This document shows, in pieces, positions 1,772-35,272 of a stretch of 40,901 nt of DNA. This DNA comes from a virus (taxonomy: Duplodnaviria; Heunggongvirae; Uroviricota; Caudoviricetes). A model generated the notes under the pieces. That model saw only the letters and a list, made by a program, of their open reading frames with translations. It had not been told where the DNA came from and did not search any database. The DNA is taken from positions 1 through 40,901 of IMG/VR virus record IMGVR_UViG_2563366888_000019, one strand, 5' to 3'. Position numbers and translations under genes: made by a program. Positions within the stretch are counted from its first letter, which is position 1. Every line of letters begins with the position of its first letter.

Positions 1772-2397
1772 ACCGCCAGCACCTTACTGGCATTGATGTA
1801 TCGCGCGCGCCGGTCGTCGATGCCGTTCCGGCCACCATTGATAATCAGAGTTACACGTGCAATATCGCCGGTATACTTCATGCATCCTTTGCTGGCAAAG
1901 AACCACGCCGCGCTACGAGCCGCGTATTCGTCCTGCGCCAGCAGTTCAGGACTCTCCAGCAGGTCAACCTTAAGACCGTTTCCACAGTCACGATAGTTAT
2001 TCAAACCGGTAACCTGGATAAGCCCGCGCCCACGGTAGTTCCAGCCATCACCAGGGGCATTGTTCCCCATGCGTTTGCTGTACACCAGATTGGCAATCGC
2101 TCTCTGGCGCTCAAGTGGCAATGGTGGTTCGCCTGCACGTCGCCCCAATGCGTTGGCCTGTCCCTGAGTGAGACGCCCAGCCCGAACAAAGTTAGCCAGT
2201 CCGCTGACGCTGTAGTTGAAATTCTCCTGCAACCGGGTGAAGCCTCCAGACTCATGCCCGACCTGAGCAATAAACATAGCCTGATCTTCTGGTTTGCTGA
2301 TACCAAACTCTTTCATCGCAGAAGTTATATGCGAGAACCAGCGTGCGGCCAGTGCCTCGCTGATACCAGCAGCTCGCTGGAATTGTTTAATCTCCAT
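1768..2397 (-). CDS. endolysin, glycoside hydrolase family 19 type (209 aa)
   Basis: [12 protein letters not shown] and [15 protein letters not shown] match GH19 signatures; GAGGT 6 nt upstream of ATG; no signal peptide. Confidence 0.85.
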
Positions 2398-3288: not shown

Positions 3289-3585
3289 TCAAATAGAGAA
3301 ATAAACACAAAAACAAAAAACAACAGGAACAGCAAAATCCAACAGACTTCCCACATCCCACACGCGTGGATCAAAACCTCCCCACCACGGCATGTTGATA
3401 CGTTTCCCTTTCCCAAACTTTTCTATCCAGCGATATTCTGCCTGGGTGTGTTCACGCGCAATGAAGAACGTACAACCGGCTATCGCACCGTAAGCCCAGT
3501 TTCCGGTAAAAATACCAACCAGTACCTGAGCCGCAAAAGCGCAAAGCGAGTGAAGAAATGGAGTGACATCAATGCTCTTAATCAT
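3289..3585 (-). CDS. small membrane protein translationally coupled to tailspike (98 aa)
   Basis: ATG overlaps tailspike stop (ATGA); hydrophobic helices. Confidence 0.45.
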   Translation of the reverse strand: MIKSIDVTPFLHSLCAFAAQVLVGIFTGNWAYGAIAGCTFFIAREHTQAEYRWIEKFGKGKRINMPWWGGFDPRVWDVGSLLDFAVPVVFCFCVYFSI

Positions 3586-5771
3586 GAAACTTCCCCATTG
3601 GTTGAAAATATGGCTCCTCCAACGCCAAGTGTATTTCGTGTTGTGCTCAACCTCAGAGGGCTGGAGTCAGAATTAGAATATCCTGTAGCAGAAATAAAAG
3701 ATCCTCCACTAATAGTCAACTGCGGAACATCGGCTATATCTGAATAAGTTCTGTCAGCAACAGTATTATTTATAGCCACATATGATCCAAAAAAACTTCT
3801 TATTGTTTGGTTTTTAACTTTACTTCCTTCAATGGTTATCCTACTACCACAGTCGGCAATAAATCCTGAATCTGCATCCAGCGTTGCATTCATAAAAGAA
3901 GCTTCAGATCTCTCTACATCAATCCATCTAATATCTTTTGTGGGATTTGCACCAAATACATGACAAATATTAGAGTTAAACCTTACACCATCTTGGAGGT
4001 GCATTAATTTTTTTATATCTGTACCCCATAGCCTTGGAAAATTAACAGATGCTCCTGCATGGCAATCAAATCCCAGCTCAGCCCCTGAGATATCTACAGC
4101 CTTTCCTGAAATAACAGCACCAGTGTCTGCATTAACGGCTGTTCCACAATTGCGCATATCATTACCAGCAACATCAACGCAACCCGCACCATCAATACGC
4201 ACACCAAGTGCACATCCATAAAAACCTTTTTCAATATTTGGTTCAAGGACTTTACCACTTGTTTCTGCATCACTTTCTTCAACGTCATGTCGTCTTGCAT
4301 CAACATATGCTGTATGAATGCAGGTTAATCCACGATATGAGCAATGTATAGTTTTATGGTCGCGTATATTAACATTTGAACCATCTCTTACATTCCATCC
4401 TATATAACAATAGATTGCACTTGACCCCTGAAAATCTGCTTTAACATTATAAATACAATTAACTGACGCAACCGTACTCTCTGTGCACCGTTCAAACTTG
4501 CTTACAGGCATTGATGCCTTGACATTATTTACCAGTTGCAGGGAAGAGTATCTGCTATAAGAAAAATCACATACGTAATATCCTTCTGGCATATATGCAG
4601 CAACACTTTCCTCATCAGGAGCACATCCGGTATGATATGCACTAATTTTTGCACCAAAACTACCATGAATTCCAACGTAGAACTTTCGAGCACCTGAATA
4701 CGGATAGAAATTAAGTTCAGCTTTTTGAGTTACAATAAATGCACAAACATCGCTATCATCTCTATTTTCTTCGATCTGAATAGCAAATACAGGACTTTTT
4801 GCTGCATCGCAAATGTAAAATAAATACTTGTATTCGTAATACGTTCTAACGATTTTAGTAAACAAACGAGTGTCAGAGAAAACCACTGAGTCTTCTGATG
4901 TTATTTTAATCCAAGACAAATCAACACCTGAACTGAATTCAATTTGATAGTTGATAATATGCCCGGTCTTAATTCTTATTTCGCAGAAAGCATTACCACC
5001 ATCCCACATAGGTCTCATTGACTGGGCTGCAATGATTGCATCTTTGAGTGTAGGGTAATCACCCCATTCGCCAACAGTAATAACAAAAGTATAATATGAG
5101 TTAAAAACAGCGGCATTTTTGCCTTTGGATATCAACTCCTTAATCATAAAAATATTATCTTCGTAATCACAAGGAGAAATTATATCCCTCATTTTGCTTT
5201 GAAATGTTCGTTGTCTTGCCCCGCTTCCTGACGGTATAAACCAACCAAAACCACCAACAACCCCGGCGATTGCAGCATCGACATAATTACGCATTGAGCG
5301 ATTATTTACAGCGTCCTGCTCAAATGATGGATCTGCAAGGTTAGAAATTTTGTTTTGCTTTGCATCGTAATATTTTGCAAGCAAAGATGGTTTCATCAAT
5401 GCACGTCTGAACCACCCAAAACATCGCTGGATCAGCATCGTCAGGTAGTCAAATGCATCTTCATGAACTTCGGGGAAAAATTTTCCCTGATTGCGAAGAT
5501 CAGTCTCCTGCACCACATCAAGCACACGCTCTATCGTAATTCGCCAGCCAGCAGCAAGCGGCGACGGGAGAACCACTTCACCGCCACTATAAGTGCCCGC
5601 TCCAGTTACCTTATAACCGGTATCCAGAACCAATTCTGTTACGTTCCCGTTCAGGTCAGACACCTGAACAACCAGGTCTGATTTTTTGAAAATACGGAAG
5701 GTATACGGAAACGATGTCGTAACGCCGTTACCGGTGTATTCGTTGTGGTCAACTTCGGTTGAGACCGTCAT
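3582..5771 (-). CDS. tailspike / tail fibre with T7-type N-terminal adaptor and beta-helix-like C-terminal domain (729 aa)
   Basis: N-terminal ~120 aa resemble the conserved podovirus tail-fibre adaptor domain; C-terminal part AT-rich, Gly/Asn/Ser/Cys-rich. Confidence 0.8.
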   Translation of the reverse strand: MTVSTEVDHNEYTGNGVTTSFPYTFRIFKKSDLVVQVSDLNGNVTELVLDTGYKVTGAGTYSGGEVVLPSPLAAGWRITIERVLDVVQETDLRNQGKFFPEVHEDAFDYLTMLIQRCFGWFRRALMKPSLLAKYYDAKQNKISNLADPSFEQDAVNNRSMRNYVDAAIAGVVGGFGWFIPSGSGARQRTFQSKMRDIISPCDYEDNIFMIKELISKGKNAAVFNSYYTFVITVGEWGDYPTLKDAIIAAQSMRPMWDGGNAFCEIRIKTGHIINYQIEFSSGVDLSWIKITSEDSVVFSDTRLFTKIVRTYYEYKYLFYICDAAKSPVFAIQIEENRDDSDVCAFIVTQKAELNFYPYSGARKFYVGIHGSFGAKISAYHTGCAPDEESVAAYMPEGYYVCDFSYSRYSSLQLVNNVKASMPVSKFERCTESTVASVNCIYNVKADFQGSSAIYCYIGWNVRDGSNVNIRDHKTIHCSYRGLTCIHTAYVDARRHDVEESDAETSGKVLEPNIEKGFYGCALGVRIDGAGCVDVAGNDMRNCGTAVNADTGAVISGKAVDISGAELGFDCHAGASVNFPRLWGTDIKKLMHLQDGVRFNSNICHVFGANPTKDIRWIDVERSEASFMNATLDADSGFIADCGSRITIEGSKVKNQTIRSFFGSYVAINNTVADRTYSDIADVPQLTISGGSFISATGYSNSDSSPLRLSTTRNTLGVGGAIFSTNGEVS

Positions 5772-5874: not shown

Positions 5875-5891
5875 ATTACCTTTCAGGTAAT
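5875..5891. promoter_or_regulatory. operator-like 17-bp palindrome ATTACCTTTCAGGTAAT (site 1, perfect)
   Basis: perfect 7-3-7 inverted repeat in divergent intergenic region between tailspike and antirepressor-like gene. Confidence 0.6.
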
Positions 5892-5927
5892 TTGCAAAAC
5901 GTGCTGGATAGCAAACAAATTATTTGC

Positions 5928-5947
5928 TACTGTATAAATATACAGTT
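5928..5947. promoter_or_regulatory. LexA (SOS) box TACTGTATAAATATACAGTT
   Basis: CTGT-N8-ACAG, 18/20 match to the E. coli consensus as recalled; ends 20 bp upstream of ATG 5967. Confidence 0.7.
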
Positions 5948-5966
5948 ATTGCATGGAGAAGATAAG

Positions 5967-6224
5967 ATGCAGCAGTATCACTATCCACTGGAAGACGGAT
6001 TTACCGAAAGGATTCACACGCCGGGAGGCGTCAGGTCACTGGTGGAGGGATCGCATTTGATGAAATTACTCCGGGATCTCGATAAGGATGGATTTAATGT
6101 CGATGGCCCACTTGCCGAACTGACTGCACTGATTAACTACGTCACCAGCTCACAGATGTCTATGCAGGATCTGCAAACACATCTCGACTATTGTGCCGAA
6201 CAATTACGAAAACAAACCACATAA
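5967..6224 (+). CDS. small antirepressor-like protein (85 aa), probably SOS-controlled
   Basis: GGAGAAG SD; LexA box in its promoter; ~40% identity by eye to the C-terminal domain of the Bro-N protein at 7693..8388. Confidence 0.55.
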   Translation: MQQYHYPLEDGFTERIHTPGGVRSLVEGSHLMKLLRDLDKDGFNVDGPLAELTALINYVTSSQMSMQDLQTHLDYCAEQLRKQTT

Positions 6225-6230
6225 AGAAAA

Positions 6231-6246
6231 GGCCGCGAAAGCGGCC
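6231..6246. terminator. hairpin GGCCGCGAAAGCGGCC (copy 1 of 2)
   Basis: perfect 6-bp stem with GAAA loop between convergent genes; T-run on minus strand; identical copy at 9289..9304. Confidence 0.55.
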
Positions 6247-6247
6247 A

Positions 6248-6754
6248 TTAACAGTCGTAAAATTCTGGGTCCCACAAACTTGCATCGCGCGGCATGGATT
6301 CTAACTTTTTCAGCCGCAAAATTCTGTCACACTCGACAACTAATTTTTGCTTCTGCTCGTCAATTTCTACTGTCTTATGCGCTGGTTCATCCCAATAATC
6401 CAGAAGGAAGGCATGGCGTTCAGATGTGACCAGATAAATCACATACACGTCACTGGTTGGGATCTTTTTATGCTTGTTAGTGGTCTTGTCTTTCTTCCCA
6501 GACGCCCAGTTTTTCCAGCATTGTTCCGTACCGCTCTCACCAAACTTGTCAGTATAGTTTCCGATGTTTAAGTGAACGTGGCGTATGTGATATTCCAGCA
6601 TCTCTTTCGGTGGATCTCGAAACAGAGTGTCCTTTCCGAAATCCTTATGATGACCGTAGCGCCAGTGATCTATGAACGCGTTTTTGATAGGTATTAGCTC
6701 AGGGTCCTTCCCAAAAATTCCAGGGTGAACCAACCCCTGGAATTTATTCGGCAT
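6248..6754 (-). CDS. YafO-toxin-like protein, candidate toxin/abortive-infection effector (168 aa)
   Basis: IFGKD, YHIRHVHL and DEPAHK segments resemble the YafO mRNA interferase family as recalled from memory; overlaps upstream gene by 11 bp. Confidence 0.45.
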   Translation of the reverse strand: MPNKFQGLVHPGIFGKDPELIPIKNAFIDHWRYGHHKDFGKDTLFRDPPKEMLEYHIRHVHLNIGNYTDKFGESGTEQCWKNWASGKKDKTTNKHKKIPTSDVYVIYLVTSERHAFLLDYWDEPAHKTVEIDEQKQKLVVECDRILRLKKLESMPRDASLWDPEFYDC

Positions 6755-7271
6755 CGTCGTAGAGCTCCTGAGCCATGTCTTCAGCAGTGCGTGCAAACAT
6801 CCTGCGCGAGATTGCATGGGATTTCTCTACGGACATCTTTGGGACCTCATGCATAACAAGTTGATGAGTTTTCTCATCAACTTGAAGTGGCTTGTATAAA
6901 CGTTGCCACCTTTCGTTAATTTTATCCTTAAAGCCAGCGAAACCACTTTCCTGACTCTTGTATCCAAAATGAGATAAAGCCAAATTCCTTTCCATTTCAT
7001 TCCTAATGTACTCAGCAAGGTTGCAGTGGAATACTTCCCCTTGTTTTTTTAGGCATGCTTCATGGTCTGTAACACTGTGACGGCTCTCATATAAGTAAAT
7101 GCGATAGGAATTTTTATTATCCTCTTCTTCATAATTTCTAATCGCATCAGCAGTTGCCATAGCTGCAGCATAAGCGGCTGCTTCAATCACCATCTCTTGC
7201 TCTTTTTCTTTTTCAGGCCTTTTCAAGGCAAAGCGTCTATGCCTCATCGCTGTAACTCTCTTCGTGTTCAT
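6744..7271 (-). CDS. hypothetical protein, upstream partner of YafO-like gene (175 aa)
   Basis: AT-rich ORF, ATG at 7271 preceded by palindrome site 2; no recognisable motif. Confidence 0.5.
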   Translation of the reverse strand: MNTKRVTAMRHRRFALKRPEKEKEQEMVIEAAAYAAAMATADAIRNYEEEDNKNSYRIYLYESRHSVTDHEACLKKQGEVFHCNLAEYIRNEMERNLALSHFGYKSQESGFAGFKDKINERWQRLYKPLQVDEKTHQLVMHEVPKMSVEKSHAISRRMFARTAEDMAQELYDDAE

Positions 7272-7282
7272 GGGCACCCCCA

Positions 7283-7299
7283 ACTACCTTTAGGGTAAA
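7283..7299. promoter_or_regulatory. operator-like palindrome ACTACCTTTAGGGTAAA (site 2, degenerate)
   Basis: 12 bp upstream of ATG of 6744..7271. Confidence 0.45.
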
Positions 7300-7454
7300 C
7301 ATTCTATCGAAAGTATACGCTCACTGGCAAAAAAATAGGCAGGTATTTTCTGAAATGGGATCAATCAAACCACATAGGGTTGAAATGACGTGAGTTATGC
7401 ATTTATCATTACCTTTGCGGTAAATTTACATTGCACTCCTCTTGTGCCATAGTA

Positions 7455-7540
7455 ATCGGGCACTGGCAAAATCCAGTGCCGGGATTGGCGTTCCGGATTA
7501 CTAAAAGGCGCATTCACCGCGCAAGCGGTTTTTTTATGCG
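7455..7540 (+). ncRNA. candidate structured RNA / leader element with terminator
   Basis: 10-bp-stem hairpin CGGGCACTGG-N6-CCAGTGCCGG followed by ACCGC-GCAA-GCGGT plus T7 terminator; no credible ORF. Confidence 0.3.
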
Positions 7541-7692
7541 TATAGCACGGCCACATTCGTATTATGGTGGGCTGTGTGGGGGCACCGAAAGGTGCGCCGG
7601 GTCCTTTTAGCCGGTTACGCCAACCCTGCACAGTTCACCACCAACCGATTGGCGTCGGTAGTGGTGATTAACCAGACTAAAAGGTAACCACT

Positions 7693-8388
7693 ATGACAGC
7701 TACAAAAAGCACGTCCATTTTTTCTTTCGAATCCCAAGCCGATATACGAGTAATCGTCATAAATGGTGAGCCATGGTTTATCGCTTCAGATGTTTGTCGG
7801 GCTATAGGCATAGCAAACCATCGAGATGCTGTTCGAAAACTTGATGATGATGAGAAGGGCGTCGCTTCAACCGACACCCCTGGCGGTGAGCAAGAATCGA
7901 TCATCATCTCCGAGTCAGGCCTCTACACACTGATCCTCCGCTGCCGCGACGCAGTGACACCAGGCACTATCCCCTACCGCTTTCGTAAATGGGTTACAGG
8001 TGAGGTTCTTCCTCAGATCCGCCGCACCGGAAGTTACATTAAAAACTCGCTCCCGCAGGAAGAACGCATAAAGATGGTTGCCGACCAGGTAGCCAACGCC
8101 ACAGCATCAGCAGTGATGCAGGCAATGAAGATAGAGAACAAAACCTACAGCGCCCCACTGAAGCCCGGCTACCGCAGTTTGATTCACTCGCCGTCTGGTG
8201 TTCTCGGCCTGACGGAGAACTCACTGCTGATGAATCTGCTGAACCAGTTACAGGAAGACGGGCACGACGTATCGGGCGCGGCGGCGGAGCTGACCACCAT
8301 GTTCTGCTACATCGTCGGTGTGAGTAAATGCCTGCGTGATATCCAGACCCACGCGGAATACATCAACGACAAAGCAGGGTTCTTCTGA
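7693..8388 (+). CDS. Bro-N domain antirepressor-type protein (231 aa)
   Basis: N-terminal region matches BRO-N pattern; C-terminal domain paralogous to 5967..6224; AAAAGG SD. Confidence 0.7.
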   Translation: MTATKSTSIFSFESQADIRVIVINGEPWFIASDVCRAIGIANHRDAVRKLDDDEKGVASTDTPGGEQESIIISESGLYTLILRCRDAVTPGTIPYRFRKWVTGEVLPQIRRTGSYIKNSLPQEERIKMVADQVANATASAVMQAMKIENKTYSAPLKPGYRSLIHSPSGVLGLTENSLLMNLLNQLQEDGHDVSGAAAELTTMFCYIVGVSKCLRDIQTHAEYINDKAGFF

Positions 8389-10221: not shown

Positions 10222-13200
10222 CTATTTCATCTGCTCTTCAACTTTATTTAGTAACGGTGATATCGCCCACAGGTTCTGAAAAGGTAGCATTTTACGGACC
10301 GCGTGGGTTTGCTGGCTGTCAAATTCTCCGTTAAGTACACCATTCGCAACCGTCGCGGCATCACCGCCAAGATCAAAGGTAGGACCAAGTAAAGCACCAA
10401 TAGCATTACGACTCTGAAACCTTGATACCGGAGGCGCACCAAACATCGCGCCAAGACCAAACCTACCGCCGCTTATGTTCTCAACGGTATTCAGCGGCTC
10501 AGAGAGCCAGCCAAGCATTCCGCCCCGGTCGATCCCCTCTTTCACAAGGTTATTCCAGCTGTAGTCGATATCGCGACCGCTTAACTTCTGTTTCATCATA
10601 TAGACCATTGAGCCAAGCGCAATCGTGCCAAGCGCACCAAGATAGAATGCAGCATCGCCCTGCTGGATACCAGATACTAGCACCCTGTTATGCTGTGCGA
10701 AGATAAACGTTTTGAACTGCGTGATCATCTTCCAGCCTTCTTTACTAAAAAACAGCGGTGTATCACCTACGCCAGGCGTTACAATCACTGAGTCTACATC
10801 TTTCAGCACTGCAGACTGGAAAATCTCTCTAGCGAAACGGTCATCCCACAGATGACTATGCCCGGTTAACAGCCCGTCCATATCCTCTCCGTGCTTCCCG
10901 AATTGCTCCCCGATTCGGCGCAGAACATCTTCATTGATGCCGACCTGTGCCATCTTCCGCATTTCACTTTTGGAGAGCGTGCCACCAGCAGAAACTTGGC
11001 GAGCCGCGTCAAGTATCCTCGACTGCACTATCATCCCGGACCATGATTTAAGTGCGCTGTTCCACTGATTCATCAGCGTCCAGTTACCGAATTTCTGCGT
11101 CATCCAGTTCAGACCTCGCTCAGCGGCGCTTCTCCGGCTATAGGGGTCAGTAAGATCCGCTATAGCCTTTGTACGCGTAGACAGGACATAATCAAGCCCA
11201 ACGGCCATTTCTCGCAAATCCCTGGTTGCAATTTTCACTGAGTCCATATTTTTAAGCATGCTTACCATTGGTCCGAGAGATTTTCTCAGGCCATGCTGCA
11301 TCATCGGTCGCATCAGATCAGTTGCAGCGGAGACAGTCATTCCACCAAGCAAACGGAGGAAGTTAATATTCCTAGCAACTCGCCCGGCACGAACAAAGAA
11401 ACTGCGTGGATCTTGAGGTGCACCGTAAGTACCAAGCAGTCGATCACGCATAGCCGTAATATCCCTAATATCAGCCTCCCGTTGCTTCTCAAGAACTGCA
11501 CGTCGTTTAGGTGTTTTAGCCTCTTTTATTAGCCGGGTATATTCCTCACTAACCTGACGGATTTGCTCCCCCATATCTTTACGGCCAAACTGCGCAGTCA
11601 GCTCAATTTCTGGTGCCACCTGCCGGAGATAACTTTCCATGATGTAGTTAACATCTGATTCAAGAAAATCTTCTATACGCTCATCAGGAATAAGCAGCGT
11701 TCTGCTTTTAGTGAAACCAGCCCGACCAACGAGTCTCTCTGGGATAATATCGGCTGGTACAAGCCCGGAAGGTGCGCCTATTATTTTATTCACGATCTCG
11801 TCAGCAGCGTCCTCTGCTTCCTCTCGGGATAGAGGCTCCATCTGCTTCAGTGCTCGTTCGCGGCTTGCATTCAGCCTTGTGGTTGAATTTGCCCGTTTTT
11901 GCAGTCGGCGAAGCTCAGAACGATATTTCCGTGGATTATCCAGCAACTCCATATGGCGCTGATAGACAGGAAGCTCACTCTTTGCCTGCGCTATATCATC
12001 AAGGCGTGTTTTAAGGTCAGAGCTTTCTTTCATCATTCTTGCCTGAAGTTTTTCTGATGAAGTCTCGGCCAACTCTTTTTCTATTCTTGTAAGACGCGCC
12101 TGTGTGTCAGTCTCCTGAGATATAAGCTTATTTCGTTTATCCAGTTCTTCCATGAGTAGAATTTTTTTACCAGACCATTTCTCCGCTTCAGCGATTTCAC
12201 TAGCGAGAGCATCAGCGCGCGGTGCCGATTCCTCTGCAGTTTTTAGCAATGAATTTATCCTTTCAATTCGCTGACCTGCTTTGTCAGCACCTTTGGCACT
12301 AATCCCTTGTATCCAGTTGGCAATTCGCCCTCTGAATTCAGTGCGGTCGGAAAGTATCTTATCGAACTTATAAATGCGGGGAAGATAACTTTTCGCCGTC
12401 ACGACATCGATATCCTCAGGAAGGATCCCCAGTTCCTGCATACGGGCTTTTGTGGTCTCGAAAATGGGGCGGATTCTGGCGGCTGCTTGTGAAACCTCAG
12501 GAATATCACTCTGATCACCACGGCGCATAGCCATGCCAACAGCTTCATTGAAATCAATAAAGTTCATCCTCTTCACGCCGCGGGCGCTAACAGATTTGCT
12601 GTACTGCTGGTAAGCATCACGAGTGGCTTCCATCTGCTTATAAAGCATGGCGTCGTATTGCTTAATCTTAGTCTCGACTGCCGTAAACGTAGCCAACCCC
12701 TCATCATTTTTGGCGAAGAAATAGTTATTTTCGGCAAGCTGCTGGTTAATCTGACGGGAGACAAGAGATGGTGATTGAGCCAAGCGGCCAGCAGGAGTGA
12801 CACTCAACGTTTTGTTAGCAAGTCCAAGTCCAGCGAGCTGTTCCTGATCGAGTGTGGTATTGAAAACCTGAGCTGCACCAATGCTTTGAGGAGAATCCAT
12901 ACCTCGCAAATGATTACCTACTGAGTTAACCACTGCCTCGCGCGCGCTAGGTCCAGCAAGTAGCTGTGCACCAGCACCAAGGATCCCACCAACGAGAGCA
13001 TCAACAACAACGTTCGATACGCTCTCCATCGGTGAGCGAGCTTCCTGAGTGGCCTGTAATGCGGCTTCTGATACTCCCCCACCAGCAGCATTCGCCAGGG
13101 CAAAACGCCCTGCCGTCTCAGCAATACTTCCTCCACGCGCTACCGCCCCTACAGGGATAAACATTGCAGCCACATTAACCGGGTCTATCATTCCCATTGC

Positions 13201-17367: not shown

Positions 17368-19838
17368 CAGAATCCCCCAACAGTAAGGCGAGGAATAACG
17401 GCAAGAACAGACAGCGGCAACGGGTCAAGCTGACGGATTTTTACACGCCCGTTTTTGCCCCAGTTACTGTCCAGTTTCACTTCTACTTTTCCGGTAGCAT
17501 CATCAACAGGATCATCGTAGAACTCGAATTCACGCTGTGGATATTCGTACCATTTACCGCCGGGCGTAGTCGCCCAGATGCCGCGACTGGCATTCACAAC
17601 CAGAGTAACGGACGGGATCACCTGTTTTTTGTCCAGCAGCGTTTCCTGTCCGTTAATGTTGATATCCAGTGTTTCGAATTCAGCAGTTATTGGCAGGCCG
17701 ATGTGCACAACAGCCCCCGGTGATTCCAGCGTGACGGCACCTCCGGAAACCACTTTTTGTGGTTCCACGTTCGCATCAGAGAGGATGTTTACGGTCTGGC
17801 CTTCAAGATGAGACAAGCCGCCAAATGTCCGGCGCGCCATCTGCCAGTTCGTGGTGGCCGCATTCCTGAGGGGTGGCGGGACGTTCCTGTTGGCACGAAC
17901 CACTACAGCGGTATTGCTGGTTACAGAAATAATGTCGCAACGTAATTCTTTTGACACTTCATCGCCAGCATCAGGAACAGTTCCGGTATAAGGGAACTGT
18001 AGTTGTGCGCCGACATCACTACTGGTGAAGTACGCACCACCAGAAACACTGATTGTATATTCCGCACGGTAATCCCATTCACCAGAACCACCAGTGATGG
18101 TCATCGTTCTGTCAGACGTATTTCTTCCATCATAGCTAAGGCCAGAATCAACAAAGAAAGCATCTTCATCGCTGGTAAATAAACGGCTGGACAGCCGCTC
18201 GATGTATCTCACTGTTTGCCCGTTAACGGTTCGGTTAACGACGAAATACACCGCATCTTCATTTCCTTCGCTGATACTGCATGTGCTTTCATATTTTCCG
18301 GTACTGGACTGTGGTGCCCATGCAAAAACCTGCTGATCACGCAAATAGGTCATCACGAGTAATTTACCGTCATCACGAATGCAGAAGGCACTGGAGTAAG
18401 GGACAATCGAGAAGCACCAGTCAACAATGCTGTGCTTCTGAAAAAGATGATTGGCAAGGATGGTCAGGTCGTTCCCCTGATAGCCGTCAACATCGAATGA
18501 GTAGGCCAGATCACGGACAACGCTGCCTTTCTCCTGGACGAACAAAGCAATATTCGCCACGGCAATTGGCGGGACGTTGCTTGAGCCATTTGATCCCTGA
18601 GAGCTGAATGCAAATGATGATGGGGTTAACACTTTGTTCTGGTCGCCGGTGATGACGTACTCACCTCCGGAAGTCAGCGCCACCAGCGAACCAACATCAA
18701 TCAGGTGACGGATCTCATTAACCTGACGCCCGGCATAGGTGTAGATAATTCTGTCATCATCCTGCGTAGGATTGCTTTTGCCAAAATCCTTATAATCCCC
18801 AGTACGGCTGGCCCAGATAGTCTGAGGGAACGCAGTCGATGCGGCGAAGTAAAGACGTTGTTGATAATAAACAACAGTGCCAGGATAACCATTAACACTG
18901 TTCCAGGCATATTTAGCCCATTTATAGCTGGCATTATCCTCGCCAACGACCTGCGAAGGGATATAGGAAATCACCTCAGCTGTTGCAGTAGTGCCATTTA
19001 CAGCAGTTATACGGGCAATGCCAAAACCACTGTGCAGATACTCCCACTCAATGCCAGTATCATCATCACCCGATCCACCCCAGCCATCCCATGATGTGCC
19101 TTCTGTATGCGAAGGGCGCAAAGTGCCTGTTTTGCCTGCTGTAACGGCGCGATAGTAGTTACTGTCTGCACGGCGAATATCGCCAATCGACGTACTCTTA
19201 CTGGTTTCCCATACCGGCACTGAATCCACTGCAGGCTGTTCCAGATAGAACAATTTGCCTACCTGCTCCGCGCCAAAAATAGAGGCGCTTGCCGTTAACG
19301 TAATTGTCCCGGTGCTGGCGCTGGCATAAACCGTCACTGACTCGTCAATATTGATATCTTCAAATGGCCCGTTCTTCGTTACCACATCAACCAGTTGCCA
19401 GTTGTCATGCGCATAGCGACGCAACTCTTTCGGCGGGTATGCCGGATGAACAAGCGTAAGCACGTCTGCGCTTTGCGTGAATTTAATTCGGAACAGATCG
19501 GCTTCAGTATATGGCGTGGCAATTTCATAAATAACATTGCTGCTGTTCAGCACCAACGCACCATCTTTGATAACGCGCATGTACTGGTGTCCGAACTCCA
19601 GAGCATAAGTCTGAACCGTCGAGAACTGGAACGGTATCAGGCGGCATTTCCGATTTGGGTATTTGGCGGCACCGACAAAACGCGTACCAGGTCGATTCTC
19701 AACGCCGCCATACTGCCGCACGATAAAGTTATCGCACTTGCGCAATGCCACCTGGTACTTCGCCATGTCGATACGACCGTACAACGACGGTCCAATCTCA
19801 CCACCGGCAAAGCTGGGCTGGATCCAACTGATAGCCAT
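17367..19838 (-). CDS. tail tubular protein B-like (gp12-like) (823 aa)
   Basis: size and order match T7 gp12; ATGA overlap with upstream gene. Confidence 0.5.
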   Translation of the reverse strand: MAISWIQPSFAGGEIGPSLYGRIDMAKYQVALRKCDNFIVRQYGGVENRPGTRFVGAAKYPNRKCRLIPFQFSTVQTYALEFGHQYMRVIKDGALVLNSSNVIYEIATPYTEADLFRIKFTQSADVLTLVHPAYPPKELRRYAHDNWQLVDVVTKNGPFEDINIDESVTVYASASTGTITLTASASIFGAEQVGKLFYLEQPAVDSVPVWETSKSTSIGDIRRADSNYYRAVTAGKTGTLRPSHTEGTSWDGWGGSGDDDTGIEWEYLHSGFGIARITAVNGTTATAEVISYIPSQVVGEDNASYKWAKYAWNSVNGYPGTVVYYQQRLYFAASTAFPQTIWASRTGDYKDFGKSNPTQDDDRIIYTYAGRQVNEIRHLIDVGSLVALTSGGEYVITGDQNKVLTPSSFAFSSQGSNGSSNVPPIAVANIALFVQEKGSVVRDLAYSFDVDGYQGNDLTILANHLFQKHSIVDWCFSIVPYSSAFCIRDDGKLLVMTYLRDQQVFAWAPQSSTGKYESTCSISEGNEDAVYFVVNRTVNGQTVRYIERLSSRLFTSDEDAFFVDSGLSYDGRNTSDRTMTITGGSGEWDYRAEYTISVSGGAYFTSSDVGAQLQFPYTGTVPDAGDEVSKELRCDIISVTSNTAVVVRANRNVPPPLRNAATTNWQMARRTFGGLSHLEGQTVNILSDANVEPQKVVSGGAVTLESPGAVVHIGLPITAEFETLDININGQETLLDKKQVIPSVTLVVNASRGIWATTPGGKWYEYPQREFEFYDDPVDDATGKVEVKLDSNWGKNGRVKIRQLDPLPLSVLAVIPRLTVGGF

Positions 19839-20443
19839 CAGGACAACCTCGCAATGGTAAACTCGTCAACCGGTGGCTGTGGTTCCTGTGATTCATTCTG
19901 GCTATGCGAGCCAGCACTAAGAATCACGCGATTGTACATATTGAGGGCAAACGTACCGAGGTCTGCATTCCCAGTCAGCGCCATGTTAATAGCTGCCGCA
20001 AGACGCCAGGCCAACGCCTCCATAAAAATGGCATCAAACATGTTCACATCTGAAACGCGAGAGACATACTTGAGCCATGCCTGCGGCTGGTCTGTGTAGA
20101 TCAACTTTCCTGTTCCGTTGGTGTCTGCACCAACTTCGTACTGAACGCGCATTGCTGCTGTTGGATTGCGTACACCAGGAAGCATAATTTCAGTAATGCG
20201 CAGACAATCGGACGGGTACTGGTACGCATATTCCCAGTCAGGCGGTGGATTGTTCGTATCTGCAAGCGCCACGCGTTTGGTAGCAAAGTTCCAGTCAAAA
20301 TCAGAAAGCACAGCATCACGGCAGGCCTCAAAGTGCAGCGAACATTCCCCTGCTTCCTTGCTGGCTTCCGTCAGGCTGTTAATGCTGCGGCTGTTGCCAA
20401 TATTGGACAGCGCACGATTACAGATCTCTACTACAGAGGACAT
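19838..20443 (-). CDS. tail tubular protein A-like (gp11-like) (201 aa)
   Basis: size and order match T7 gp11; ATG at 20443 overlaps upstream stop. Confidence 0.45.
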   Translation of the reverse strand: MSSVVEICNRALSNIGNSRSINSLTEASKEAGECSLHFEACRDAVLSDFDWNFATKRVALADTNNPPPDWEYAYQYPSDCLRITEIMLPGVRNPTAAMRVQYEVGADTNGTGKLIYTDQPQAWLKYVSRVSDVNMFDAIFMEALAWRLAAAINMALTGNADLGTFALNMYNRVILSAGSHSQNESQEPQPPVDEFTIARLS

Positions 20444-25968: not shown

Positions 25969-26045
25969 GTGGCATTAGCTCAGTTGGACAGAGCAACCGC
26001 CTTCTAAGCGGTTGGTCGCAGGTTCGAATCCTGCATGCCACGCCA
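25969..26045 (+). tRNA. tRNA-Arg (anticodon UCU)
   Basis: 77 nt; acceptor stem GTGGCAT/ATGCCAC, T-loop GGTTCGAATCC, anticodon loop CTTCTAA, discriminator G and encoded CCA; close to host argU-type tRNA as recalled. Confidence 0.85.
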
Positions 26046-31240: not shown

Positions 31241-31812
31241 TGGATGACTCCTTTACGAAGCTGTTCGGCGATATCTTCGAGAACGCCATCAGAGAATGAA
31301 CGGTCAAAATCGCCTTCCGGCGCATTAGCCATAAACTCAGTAGAGGTAAGAATCATCCGGGCAATATCCGCGGCGTTCTTCGCAGTATCATCAATAAAAC
31401 CAGCTTCCCAGGCAGCCAGCATTCTGTTCGCCACAAAGTAAGCGCCCTCCTTGCGTGCTTCAGTCTTCACTTCAGCCAGGAAAGCATCGGTGGCTGGGGT
31501 GTCTGATTGCAGAGACTTTGCGCGATAGTCATTCCACCCTCTTGCATACATGGGATTAACTTGCACTCCATCTTTTACGCAATATGCCTGCCCTCCACGG
31601 TTGATAACCTTGATTTCGTCCATAGCGCCAGACTTCATCCCCGCATTCTCCGCAGCCAGCGCATTAGCACGCACCAGTTGCACTTCCAGTTGCGTTGCCA
31701 AATCGCTGATCAGTTTTGCCACACTACGCATATCAACGGCACCACATTCTGCTTTCAGTTCCGAAGCCATCTCATGCCCGGCGGCAACTAACCCTTTGAT
31801 ATTACTTTCCAT
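31237..31812 (-). CDS. hypothetical early protein (191 aa)
   Basis: ORF with ATG start; stop overlaps the downstream start (ATGA). Confidence 0.5.
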   Translation of the reverse strand: MESNIKGLVAAGHEMASELKAECGAVDMRSVAKLISDLATQLEVQLVRANALAAENAGMKSGAMDEIKVINRGGQAYCVKDGVQVNPMYARGWNDYRAKSLQSDTPATDAFLAEVKTEARKEGAYFVANRMLAAWEAGFIDDTAKNAADIARMILTSTEFMANAPEGDFDRSFSDGVLEDIAEQLRKGVIQ

Positions 31813-31873
31813 CTTTACCCTCGCTTATCCACATAACTTATTGATTACATTGATAACTAAAAAGATCGTCGAT

Positions 31874-32221
31874 TCAGAACTCTTCGATGTTCCAGCCACC
31901 ACCTGCTTTCTTTGGCTTAACCGTTACCCCGATGATTCGGAACGGATACTGATCTGCGGCGACTTTGGTTTTCACTCTGGCGTCATCGGTCCAGAATCCC
32001 CCTTTCACTTCGTGCAGTTCCATCTCGCCGGTGGCGAGCATCACAGCAAAATCTGGCGTATAGAACGTGTTGTCAGCTAACCGCAGCTTGATACCCTCAA
32101 ATCGATACCAGACGATTTCTCCTGCACGTTTACGCAACTCAAGGTGCTGGCAATACGCAGATTCTGTTTTGTTCATCTGGCCTGTTTTGAGTCGACCAAG
32201 AGCCTGCATCTGTTTTCTCAT
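31874..32221 (-). CDS. DUF1064-type phage protein (115 aa)
   Basis: family assignment from memory; GAGG SD inside palindrome site 6. Confidence 0.5.
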   Translation of the reverse strand: MRKQMQALGRLKTGQMNKTESAYCQHLELRKRAGEIVWYRFEGIKLRLADNTFYTPDFAVMLATGEMELHEVKGGFWTDDARVKTKVAADQYPFRIIGVTVKPKKAGGGWNIEEF

Positions 32222-32223
32222 GA

Positions 32224-32240
32224 TTTACCTCTGAGGTAAT
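32224..32240. promoter_or_regulatory. operator-like palindrome TTTACCTCTGAGGTAAT (site 6)
   Basis: 3 bp upstream of ATG 32221; candidate minus-strand promoter (TTGATT-N17-TTTAAT) just upstream. Confidence 0.55.
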
Positions 32241-32285
32241 TAAAAACCACATAAGACACGAAATCAATAGAGTTTAGAATATTTT

Positions 32286-34302: not shown

Positions 34303-34533
34303 TCATGAGTAGAAGAAGTATGCCAGTTCTGCTTTTGAGCGCAGCCATTGTCTTGTTTTACAGGCTTTAAAAAGCCCATTCATCAATACCTTACCTGGCA
34401 TTTTGCGCTTACCTGTTAAGTGAGTCTGGATATAGTGACTCGTCGTTCCGGCTTCCTGTGCGAAGGCTTCACGCTCATCCGGAGTAAGTGCAAGCCAGTG
34501 CTTTTTGAAATCGAAATGTCCGTTATCGCTCAT
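34303..34533 (-). CDS. Cro-like HTH regulator (76 aa)
   Basis: first gene of minus-strand early operon, divergent from repressor; HTH-like EAFAQEAGTTSHYIQTHL. Confidence 0.5.
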   Translation of the reverse strand: MSDNGHFDFKKHWLALTPDEREAFAQEAGTTSHYIQTHLTGKRKMPGKVLMNGLFKACKTRQWLRSKAELAYFFYS

Positions 34534-34569: not shown

Positions 34570-34585
34570 TCACCTATAAGGTAAC
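34569..34585. promoter_or_regulatory. operator-like palindrome TTCACCTATAAGGTAAC (site 9)
   Basis: divergent immunity region. Confidence 0.45.
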
Positions 34586-34599
34586 AAAAATCAAGGATA

Positions 34600-34616
34600 G
34601 TTACCCATGAGGTGCA
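34600..34616. promoter_or_regulatory. operator-like palindrome GTTACCCATGAGGTGCA (site 10, degenerate)
   Basis: divergent immunity region, abuts site 11. Confidence 0.4.
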
Positions 34617-34633
34617 TTTACCTGTTGGGTAAT
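34617..34633. promoter_or_regulatory. operator-like palindrome TTTACCTGTTGGGTAAT (site 11)
   Basis: divergent immunity region, ~55 bp upstream of repressor ATG. Confidence 0.55.
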
Positions 34634-34687: not shown

Positions 34688-35272
34688 ATGAAAAGTATCC
34701 AGGACGTCCGCAGGCAAAATCTCAACGACTTGATCGACCGTGAATTCAATGGTGTTCAGACGCGGATGGCTGAAAAACTTGGAACTCAGGCAAATCTGGT
34801 AAACCGCTGGGCTCTTGGCAAGAAGGTTATCGGCGACCAGGTTGCGCGAAAAATTGAAGCTGCCGCCAATAAACCCCGTAACTGGCTTGATATCGATCGC
34901 TCGCTTTCTCAGGAAGGTTTTCAGCCTGTCGGACCAAGCGACATTGGTCAACTGGCGGCTCACAACCTGGAACGCTGGATGAGCGAAAGCCGCGACCTTT
35001 CAACGCAGGGAAAACTTCACCGCGCATCCGGCGTCGCCCAGGTGACAATCAGCCGCCTGTTAAACAATGAGGTCAGCGTTTCCATTTCCACCCTGGAGAA
35101 TGTTGCATCCGCATTCGGGCGTCACGGCTATGAATTACTGATTCACCCGCACGACCCTGCGACTATCAACTATGACCGCTCGCGCTACGCTTTGTTACCC
35201 GAAACCGAGAAAGCAAAGATCGAAAGTTACATTGAATTTGTCATCAACCAGAACGAAAAAAACAAACAATAA
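34688..35272 (+). CDS. prophage repressor candidate, tandem HTH, no S24 peptidase domain (194 aa)
   Basis: two HTH-like segments (QTRMAEKLGTQANLVNRWALG and ASGVAQVTISRLLNNEVSVS); no Ser-Lys autocleavage motifs; divergent from Cro-like; weak SD; terminator follows. Confidence 0.55.
   Translation: MKSIQDVRRQNLNDLIDREFNGVQTRMAEKLGTQANLVNRWALGKKVIGDQVARKIEAAANKPRNWLDIDRSLSQEGFQPVGPSDIGQLAAHNLERWMSESRDLSTQGKLHRASGVAQVTISRLLNNEVSVSISTLENVASAFGRHGYELLIHPHDPATINYDRSRYALLPETEKAKIESYIEFVINQNEKNKQ

Follow-up and report, generated by a model that had tools for sequence, protein, structure and literature searches.

The 40,901-nt stretch of DNA analysed here (IMG/VR virus record IMGVR_UViG_2563366888_000019, positions 1 to 40,901; hereafter the window) is a prophage of E. 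coli, of the genus Uetakevirus and similar to epsilon15, phiV10, and SPC32H. Rep, the repressor of this phage, very likely does not cleave itself and is likely switched off by two antirepressor units, one a small LexA-gated antirepressor, Ant (Unit 1, 5876-6224), the other a protein with a Bro-N domain fused to an Ant-like domain and predicted to be gated by a C4-type antisense RNA (Unit 2, 7409-8388). Unit 1 agrees with the SPC32H Rep-Ant system in every respect that can be tested computationally, and Unit 2 has the features of the C4 and IsrK RNA families, the leader open reading frame (ORF) excepted. More tentatively, we put forward a reading that we find plausible but hold with some doubt: that one repressor-binding Ant fold may be used twice in these phages, free under LexA control and joined to swappable N-terminal modules under C4/IsrK control, with the RNA loops reassorting independently of Rep.

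The window resembles the E. coli Uetakevirus podoviruses phiV10, vB_EcoP_ZX5 (ZX5 below), TL-2011b, EC.W1-9, and phiv142-3, with 92-98% DNA identity in blocks, and its gene order follows that of phiV10 and SPC32H. On one side of the analysed span is the tailspike gene (3582-5771, minus strand), and on the other a group of small genes ahead of the virion genes. An earlier note on this sequence had described positions 5928-8388 as an SOS-controlled antirepressor circuit. The part of that description that places ant under a LexA box stands; the part that takes in the Bro-N gene does not, as this gene is a unit separate from the SOS-controlled ant, with its own C4/IsrK module and no LexA box nearby, even at 3 mismatches.

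The core of the circuit is known already, and the dual-input reading is a moderate extension of it. Since the mechanism has been published for the genus Uetakevirus (Kim & Ryu 2013, J Virol 87:11775; Kim et al. 2016, PNAS 113:E2480; summarised in PMC7380047, PMC9638917, and PMC9986798), Unit 1 is a rediscovery. In the literature searched, we found no description of homology between free Ant and the C-terminal domain of a modular antirepressor, of a C4 module in Uetakeviruses, or of C4 specificities reassorting over a constant Rep.

The LexA-Gated Antirepressor and Its Proposed Target

As described in PMC7380047, an SOS response of the SPC32H type leads from LexA cleavage to production of the antirepressor, which inactivates the repressor by protein-protein contact and not by cleavage. 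The DNA-binding form of SPC32H Rep is a tetramer, which is broken when an Ant tetramer engages two dimers of Rep (PMC9638917). The C-terminal p53-like tetramerisation domain of Rep (“CAD”) doubles as the Ant-binding surface (PMC9986798). The elements of Unit 1 and of the rep region in the window are listed below; HTH denotes helix-turn-helix, and aa amino acids.

5876..5890, no strand assigned: TTACC-N5-GGTAA palindrome, candidate Rep operator at ant, just upstream of a TTGCAA hexamer and kept in the alignment of ant upstream regions
5928..5947, no strand assigned: LexA (SOS) box TACTGTATAAATATACAGTT, 18/20 to the E. coli 20-mer consensus TACTGTATATATATACAGTA (2 mismatches)
5967..6224, plus strand: ant, 85-aa antirepressor, ortholog of SPC32H Ant (PDB 5D50_E, tblastn, phrog_450)
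34303..34533, minus strand: gene in the Cro position, divergent from rep (from the ORF list), placed as phiV10p41 and SPC32H_042
34570..34632, no strand assigned: rep-cro intergenic region with candidate operators, two TTACC-N5-GGTAA-type palindromes at 34570-34584 and 34618-34632
34688..35272, plus strand: rep, 194-aa prophage repressor, SPC32H Rep homolog, with two HTH domains and a C-terminal tetramerisation/Ant-binding tail

The 85-aa protein has a single match in the PDB, chain E of 5D50 (“Anti-repressor protein”, 86 aa), with an E-value of 1.3e-47 over residues 2-85, and by tblastn it is 88% identical to the annotated SPC32H ant at comparable length. Within the phage collection, Ant-like domains are confined to Uetakevirus-like records (35 records).

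The earlier note had pointed to a LexA box upstream of this gene, and the box holds up well. With up to 3 mismatches allowed, TACTGTATAAATATACAGTT is the only site of the window that fits TACTGTATATATATACAGTA, and 100 shuffles gave no match at all. It ends 19 nt before the ant ATG (5967), with a GGAG Shine-Dalgarno sequence at 5955-5958. The bare motif CTGT-N8-ACAG occurs three times in the window against 0.42 expected; the other two sites (21622 and 26161) have GC-rich spacers and, by comparison of their positions with the ORF list, lie inside long ORFs. In an alignment of five phages both half-sites, CTGT and ACAG, are invariant and the spacer is variable, as expected of a functional LexA site. 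All nine genomes covered by a scripted survey, from E. coli, Salmonella, and Enterobacter, have a perfect box in this position, where Klebsiella-type relatives have ATGT-(AT)4-ACAG. From these data we infer that LexA binds at 5928-5947 in the window. A promoter scan detected no -10/-35 hexamers for ant, and gave no confident placement of its promoter. In SPC32H the LexA site and the ant promoter reportedly overlap, and the sister phage SPC32N is said to be constitutively lytic through one base substitution in that site.

Two Klebsiella relatives, Kp4865-1 and BUCT711, have their only perfect CTGT-N8-ACAG boxes with AT-rich spacers away from ant, at 12738 and 382, respectively. The BUCT711 box lies between two small hypothetical genes near the genome end, and these boxes possibly belong to another SOS-controlled gene.

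Rep matches PDB 5D50_A (“Repressor”) with an E-value of 4e-42 over residues 1-190 of 194, and 5D4Z_A with 4e-20. Since the crystallised SPC32H Rep is thus matched over nearly the whole length, an S24 domain would have no space, and a Pfam scan of Rep returned HTH-type matches only (HTH_3; two regions) and no Peptidase_S24, in line with what the earlier note had said of the repressor candidate. Its suggestion that induction proceeds through a LexA-derepressed antirepressor rather than RecA-mediated cleavage is likewise supported by the 88% identity of Ant with its SPC32H counterpart and by the homology of the two repressors, and its remark that the antirepressor gene lies far from the immunity locus is accurate: ant and rep are ~28.5 kb apart, and ant adjoins the tailspike gene, an arrangement that SPC32H shares in full. 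The phages phiV10, ZX5, and phiv142-3 have repressors 100% identical to Rep. The product of the Cro-position gene gave no family match.

The palindrome TTACC-N5-GGTAA is strongly over-represented, with 14 copies in the window at up to 1 mismatch against 0.53 expected. These 15-mers start at 5876, 7284, 7409, 8460, 25632, 28774, 28792, 32225, 32287, 34233, 34570, 34618, 35330, and 35392, and most of them seemingly lie between called ORFs. Four related phages have 12-15 copies per genome, and Gifsy-1, used as a control, has one. The pair downstream of rep (35330 and 35392) is 62 bp apart, a spacing that recurs in every genome, and both antirepressor units have a copy immediately upstream of their -35-like hexamers. 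Even Reps with no more than 42-45% identity all have the same recognition helix, NLVNRW, in the first HTH. To judge from the sequences, the palindrome is probably the operator of the Rep tetramer, in which case Rep would be a genome-wide repressor of many promoters. The simplest reading, by analogy with C1 at the P1 c4-icd-ant operon, is that Rep damps both of its own antagonists; this would create positive feedback once Rep starts to fail.

In the mechanism that we propose for Unit 1, a known SOS switch of the SPC32H type, LexA bound to the box at 5928-5947 would repress ant in the lysogen. DNA damage would lead to RecA-driven cleavage of LexA and to production of the 85-aa Ant, the tetramer of which would bind the C-terminal tails of Rep, break the DNA-binding Rep tetramer, and derepress the lytic genes.

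The C4/IsrK RNA Module and the Bro-N Fusion Protein

The Bro-N gene is preceded by a 400-nt non-coding stretch. Unit 2, which includes RNA elements in this region, is made up as follows.

7409..7423, no strand assigned: another copy of the TTACC-N5-GGTAA palindrome, just ahead of the TTTACA (-35-like) of the RNA-module promoter; kept in 9 Uetakevirus loci
7425..7453, plus strand: sigma-70-like promoter (TTTACA-17-CATAGT, with TG), predicted to start transcription near 7460, conserved in the alignment
7460..7535, plus strand: IsrK-like small RNA (Rfam RF01394, 72.3 bits, gathering threshold 50, model positions 1-77 of 77)
7485-7491 and 7501-7508, plus strand: a1 (TTGGCGT) and b1 (CTAAAAGG), target copies inside the IsrK-like RNA
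7516-7529 plus T-run, to 7535, plus strand: intrinsic terminator of the IsrK-like RNA (terminator scan)
7560..7645, plus strand: C4-type antisense RNA (Rfam RF01695, 77.7 bits, gathering threshold 45, full length 1-87)
7603-7610 and 7617-7623, plus strand: C4 loops b' (CCTTTTAG) and a' (ACGCCAA), from exact-complement matching
7649-7655 and 7677-7684, plus strand: C4 target sites a2 (TTGGCGT) and b2 (CTAAAAGG), from exact complementarity
7693..8388, plus strand: 231-aa Bro-N::Ant-like protein, with Bro-N at nt 7741-8013 (aa 17-107) and the Ant-like domain at nt 8140-8370 (aa 150-226)

A third Rfam family, RF03163 (c4-a1b1), scored 39 bits at 7447-7499 on the plus strand, below its gathering threshold of 46.7. 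The predicted fold of the C4 RNA, at -45.6 kcal/mol, shows the long stem and the pair of inner hairpins that are expected for C4. Loop a' is exactly complementary to both a1 and a2, and b' to both b1 and b2; b2 covers the AAGG Shine-Dalgarno sequence and ends 8 nt before the Bro-N start codon at 7693.

The pairing was examined across 10 loci, the window and nine others (eight Uetakeviruses and one Stx phage), by exact-complement word matching of the C4 core against its flanks, locus by locus; RNAduplex pairings of long segments were uninterpretable. Three a-types (ACGCCAA/TTGGCGT, AGACCAA/TTGGTCT, and GTCTCAA/TTGAGAC) and four b-types (CCTTTTAG, CCTTTGTAG, CCACTTAG, and CCTTTTTC, each with its complement) were present. 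The C4 loops match a1, a2, and b2 exactly in all 10 loci, and b1 exactly except in Tyrion and EC.W1-9, where one position is off, which we interpret as a G.U wobble. In every locus b2 ends 7-11 nt before the start codon. Three-way covariation of this kind (a'/a1/a2 and b'/b1/b2) is the signature of the P1/P7 c4 system.

The loops also come in different combinations: CGCC with TTTTAG in the window, ZX5, and phiV10, GACC with CACTTAG in phiv142-3, and CGCC with CACTTAG in HEMP4. At least three combinations occur among phages with Rep 99.5-100% identical, and C4 specificity loops may reassort independently of Rep. Relatives with the same Rep and different loop combinations should consequently be heteroimmune at the RNA level, as are P1 and P7.

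An icd/orf45-like leader ORF that ends just before the start codon is not conserved in Tyrion, EC.W1-9, phiv142-3, or Kp4865-1, so that C4 would occlude the antirepressor’s own ribosome-binding site. A 37-codon ORF at 7574-7687 in the window (1779-1892 in ZX5) runs over the C4 RNA and a2/b2 and is annotated as “ash family protein” in the ZX5 record; it has no Pfam match, and relatives do not keep it as a reading frame, so that the protein call is probably an error made over a gene for RNA. The antirepressor downstream of the equivalent C4 module in the Stx phage is unrelated to either the Bro-N protein or Ant, which indicates that RNA module and protein are independent cassettes. In the window, the C4 pairings would be expected to gate the Bro-N gene in vivo.

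The 231-aa protein has a Bro-N domain (PF02498) at residues 17-107 (E-value 2e-21; 76.7 bits vs. a gathering threshold of 25.6). Residues 150-223 align with Ant at 42% identity over 74 residues without gaps (BLASTP, E-value 8e-16), in good agreement with the figure of about 40% that the earlier note had estimated by eye. The same C-terminal domain matches 5D50_E (E-value 1e-13, residues 150-226) and the Ant PHROG, phrog_450 (E-value 4e-36). The full-length protein was required as query to find relatives of this architecture, as a protein search with the C-terminal domain alone returned only short proteins (54-144 aa) and no fusions.

Several lines of evidence connect this C-terminal domain with Rep. 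Among phages with Rep 98-100% identical, it is 91-100% identical while the N-terminal domain is exchanged, the alternatives being divergent Bro-N types, AntA (PF08346) in phiv142-3 Orf8, and P22_AR_N (PF10547) in a 314-aa protein of TL-2011b. In more distant phages the identities of C-terminal domain and Rep fall in step (78% and 78% in Tyrion, 52% and 45% in Kp4865-1), although this parallel comes from only two independent lineages and is thus a weak point. The fused domain follows the divergence of Rep more closely than free Ant does. The window protein is also 100% identical to ZX5 ORF4, annotated as “anti-repressor”, from a phage with an identical Rep; when ORF4 was overexpressed, prophage counts fell from 1e9 to 1e6, and the level of rep transcripts dropped by 75% (PMC9782041). 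Finally, an 84-aa chimera (P0017, from a Logan SRR18031870 locus, 2501-2755) has an N-terminal half of the small-Ant type and a C-terminal half of the fused type. It occupies the canonical ant slot behind the tailspike gene, with an ATGT-N8-ACAG box and a TTACC palindrome upstream. Chimeras between the two paralogs suggest that free and fused Ant-like domains are functionally interchangeable. Indirect but convergent evidence thus points to Rep binding by the fused domain.

Further copies of the domain were seen elsewhere. A third copy, 91-92% identical, is found in TL-2011b (31300-32244, the extra 314-aa protein with P22_AR_N) and in HEMP4 (~1603-1878), and blastn detected no C4-like sequence near either. 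Stand-alone fused-type domains of 95-97 aa occur in E. coli GCA_013059185.1 (locus 2501-2794) and in GCA_900114985.1 (locus 2501-2788). One of them, which has no upstream box, lies between an MT-A70 methylase and an integrase in a Uetakevirus-like prophage adjoining a guaA-type gene for GMP synthase. The other is in an island, behind an AlpA-type gene and beside HicA toxin and DUF1902 genes; its protein is labelled Klebsiella quasipneumoniae in one source.

Unit 2 would, on our proposal, be an SOS-independent antirepressor gene under RNA control of the P1/P7 immI type. Its constitutive-looking promoter would yield a short IsrK-like RNA that stops at its own terminator, and read-through would give a longer transcript containing both the C4 RNA and the mRNA of the Bro-N::Ant-like protein. 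Pairing of C4 a'/b' with a2/b2 is predicted to leave the protein untranslated in the lysogen, as b2 covers the ribosome-binding site, and the decoy copies a1 and b1 in the IsrK-like RNA could titrate C4. Where C4 is absent, outnumbered, or of another specificity, as in a fresh infection or with a superinfecting relative, the protein would be made, and its C-terminal Ant-like domain is predicted to disable Rep as Ant does. If this is true, a superinfecting phage could break the Rep immunity of a resident prophage and co-induce it.

Competing Explanations, Neighboring Genes, and Distribution

The role of the Bro-N protein leaves the most room for another view, namely that only the small Ant acts on Rep and that the fusion protein serves DNA binding, host take-over, or anti-defence, its shared domain being a tetramerisation module. 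Ant is tetrameric in its complex, so the domain could indeed have been kept for self-assembly rather than for binding Rep, and in Gifsy-1 the LexA-controlled GfoA and the C4-controlled AnrP have no similarity, so a two-unit architecture does not require a shared domain. Several results weigh against the role that we propose for the protein. AlphaFold2 (AF2) monomers of the full Bro-N protein (mean pLDDT 67.6; alignment of 34 sequences) and of its C-terminal domain alone (75.2; 14 sequences) did not retrieve 5D50 from the PDB with Foldseek, which leaves the fold assignment of this domain resting on sequence comparison, although a monomer model is perhaps not comparable with a protein that is an obligate tetramer in its complex. 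In phiV10 a frameshift within the Ant-like domain splits the Bro-N gene (19551-20230) into two annotated genes, p23 and p22, so that Unit 2 is dispensable for a viable phage and the type phage probably has no functional second antirepressor. The overexpression experiment in ZX5 was crude and included no binding test. A further difficulty concerns Unit 1: identity with the SPC32H counterpart is as low as 42% for Rep as a whole and 46% for its C-terminal tail, against 88% for Ant, which makes transfer of the Ant-Rep contact no more than plausible. We nevertheless infer that Ant binds Rep in the window phage; the disparity may mean either that Ant reads a small set of conserved residues in the tail or that the Ant tetramer itself imposes the constraint.

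Much of the evidence on the fusion protein speaks against a bare tetramerisation module. Among phages that share one Rep, three unrelated N-terminal domains are swapped and the C-terminal domain stays constant; its divergence runs parallel to that of Rep, and it is confined to phages with a Rep of the window type. A chimera with small Ant occupies the SOS slot. The C4-type RNA modules of P1 and Gifsy-1 control antirepressors, and overexpression of the identical ZX5 protein lowered lysogeny 1000-fold. We therefore regard a role for Ant alone as unlikely, and favor the reading in which both units act on Rep. (The best Foldseek matches of the AF2 Bro-N half, the Dachshund-homology domains of human SKI and Ski-like protein, were non-significant, with an E-value of 0.2, a probability of 0.85-0.90, and a TM-score of ~0.5 on the target.)

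It has also to be considered that the two units form one SOS operon, in which the LexA box would govern ant, and read-through would extend this control to the Bro-N gene. The two genes share the plus strand, and in phiV10 and ZX5 the gap between them is only ~300 nt. In the window, however, this gap is occupied by the following elements.

6231..6246, T-run on the minus strand: GC-rich hairpin GGCCGCTTTCGCGGCC between ant and the convergent cassette (terminator scan)
6248..7271, minus strand: two-gene cargo cassette encoding overlapping ~189-aa and ~175-aa products, phrog_1651 and phrog_9503, both of unknown function

A 1-kb cassette on the opposite strand and a terminator-like hairpin thus separate the genes. 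A conserved promoter-like site belongs to the Bro-N unit itself, the leader of which contains an intrinsic terminator (7516-7535), C4 at b2 would still block translation of any read-through transcript, and SPC32H and BUCT711 carry ant without any Bro-N unit. A common operon is on these grounds very improbable. Still harder to credit is the default lambda paradigm, in which induction would follow RecA-stimulated self-cleavage of Rep and the LexA box with its small gene would be an unrelated SOS moron. We found nothing in its favor; Rep has neither an S24 domain nor an S24 motif, it is collinear with a crystallised repressor made up of HTH domains and a p53-like tetramerisation tail, and in the ortholog Rep is reported to stay uncleaved and Ant to be required (PMC7380047).

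The cassette itself has a promoter-like site of its own (7330-7301) and a terminator (6246-6231). Its products matched no Pfam or NCBIfam family and gave no significant PADLOC match. It is present in EC.W1-9 and absent at that place in phiV10 and ZX5, while TL-2011b has a different insert. The cassette is a moron or a candidate defence/toxin cassette and, though inserted between the two antirepressor units, lies outside the circuit. Elsewhere in the window, a tRNA-Arg gene (anticodon TCT) is located at 25969-26045 on the plus strand, in the region of the virion-gene cluster; phiv142-3 also has an annotated tRNA-Arg(tct).

Among 5,426 complete E. coli genomes, 529 contain the segment with LexA box and ant, the protein being labelled “hypothetical protein” in each of the eight matching records listed, and 98 contain the full segment with C4 and the Bro-N gene. 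For the SOS half the value of our results is mainly one of annotation, as Ant probably decides the induction of these prophages by DNA-damaging antibiotics. For the other half, the variable C-terminal part of a Bro-N “antirepressor” gains a concrete predicted target, the C-terminal tail of Rep, and common E. coli podoviral prophages would have a P1-type antisense-RNA layer of immunity, with several specificity types, on top of one type of repressor. Cross-induction and anti-immunity are predicted between co-circulating relatives, including phages of O157, avian pathogenic E. coli (APEC), and other enterohemorrhagic E. coli (EHEC) strains (phiV10, phiv142-3, and TL-2011b).

Comparison With Known Systems

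Unit 1 resembles SPC32H in genus (Uetakevirus), in the position of the LexA box, in the tailspike-ant neighborhood, and in the domain plan of Rep, which has no S24 domain (PDB 5D50 and 5D4Z). SPC32H differs in having neither a gene for a Bro-N::Ant-like protein nor a C4 module. In ZX5 the small ant gene is annotated as “hypothetical protein”, and the paper describing ORF4 (Li et al. 2022, PMC9782041) mentions neither LexA nor SPC32H (0 occurrences each).

In its logic, Unit 1 is also comparable to Tum of coliphage 186, GfoA/GftA/GfhA of the Gifsy phages, and AntC of N15, in all of which a LexA-repressed small protein encoded away from the immunity region inactivates a non-cleavable repressor. 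We detected no sequence relationship between Ant and any of these proteins; Ant matches its own family only. In contrast to Tum, GfoA, and AntC, the tetramer of the Ant ortholog binds the C-terminal tail of its repressor and not the DNA-binding surface.

The Bro-N fusion shares with “prophage antirepressors” of the COG3617 type (Bro-N/AntA/P22_AR_N) an interchangeable N-terminal module combined with a variable C-terminal domain. It differs from them in that its C-terminal domain is recognisable as a homolog of a structurally characterised, repressor-specific antirepressor.

The RNA part of Unit 2 is most readily compared with immI of P1 and P7 (c4, icd, ant1/2). In P1, C4 arises by processing of the antirepressor-operon leader; it reportedly blocks expression of the operon, and differences in the loops are said to define immunity types. 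As in the window, a'/b' pair with a2/b2 at the ribosome-binding site and an additional a1/b1 pair lies upstream. Loop and target variants set the immunity type while the main repressor stays constant, and the main repressor may act at the operon promoter; the role of C4 and the action of C1 at the antirepressor operon are summarised in PMC8198154 (citing Citron & Schuster 1990). The window differs from P1 and P7 in lacking a conserved icd-like leader ORF, in an antirepressor protein unrelated to P1 Ant, and in belonging to a podovirus with a further antirepressor under LexA control.

The layout with two units has its closest precedent in Gifsy-1. Its isrK, a1b1, and C4 array precedes anrP in the same order as in the window; a short IsrK RNA activates translation of the read-through mRNA, and the place of C4 is also that of STnc1160, a processed RNA of ~80 nt (Hershko-Shalev et al. 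2016, PMC4825925). Gifsy-1 likewise combines this array with a small antirepressor from a LexA-dinI-gfoA locus and a repressor that stays uncleaved (Lemire et al. 2011, PMC3121763). It differs in that AnrP has an ORF6N N-terminal domain, orf45 is coupled to anrP, and the repressor belongs to another family. GfoA and AnrP also have no sequence in common, whereas the two antirepressors of the window share a domain of the Rep-binding type.

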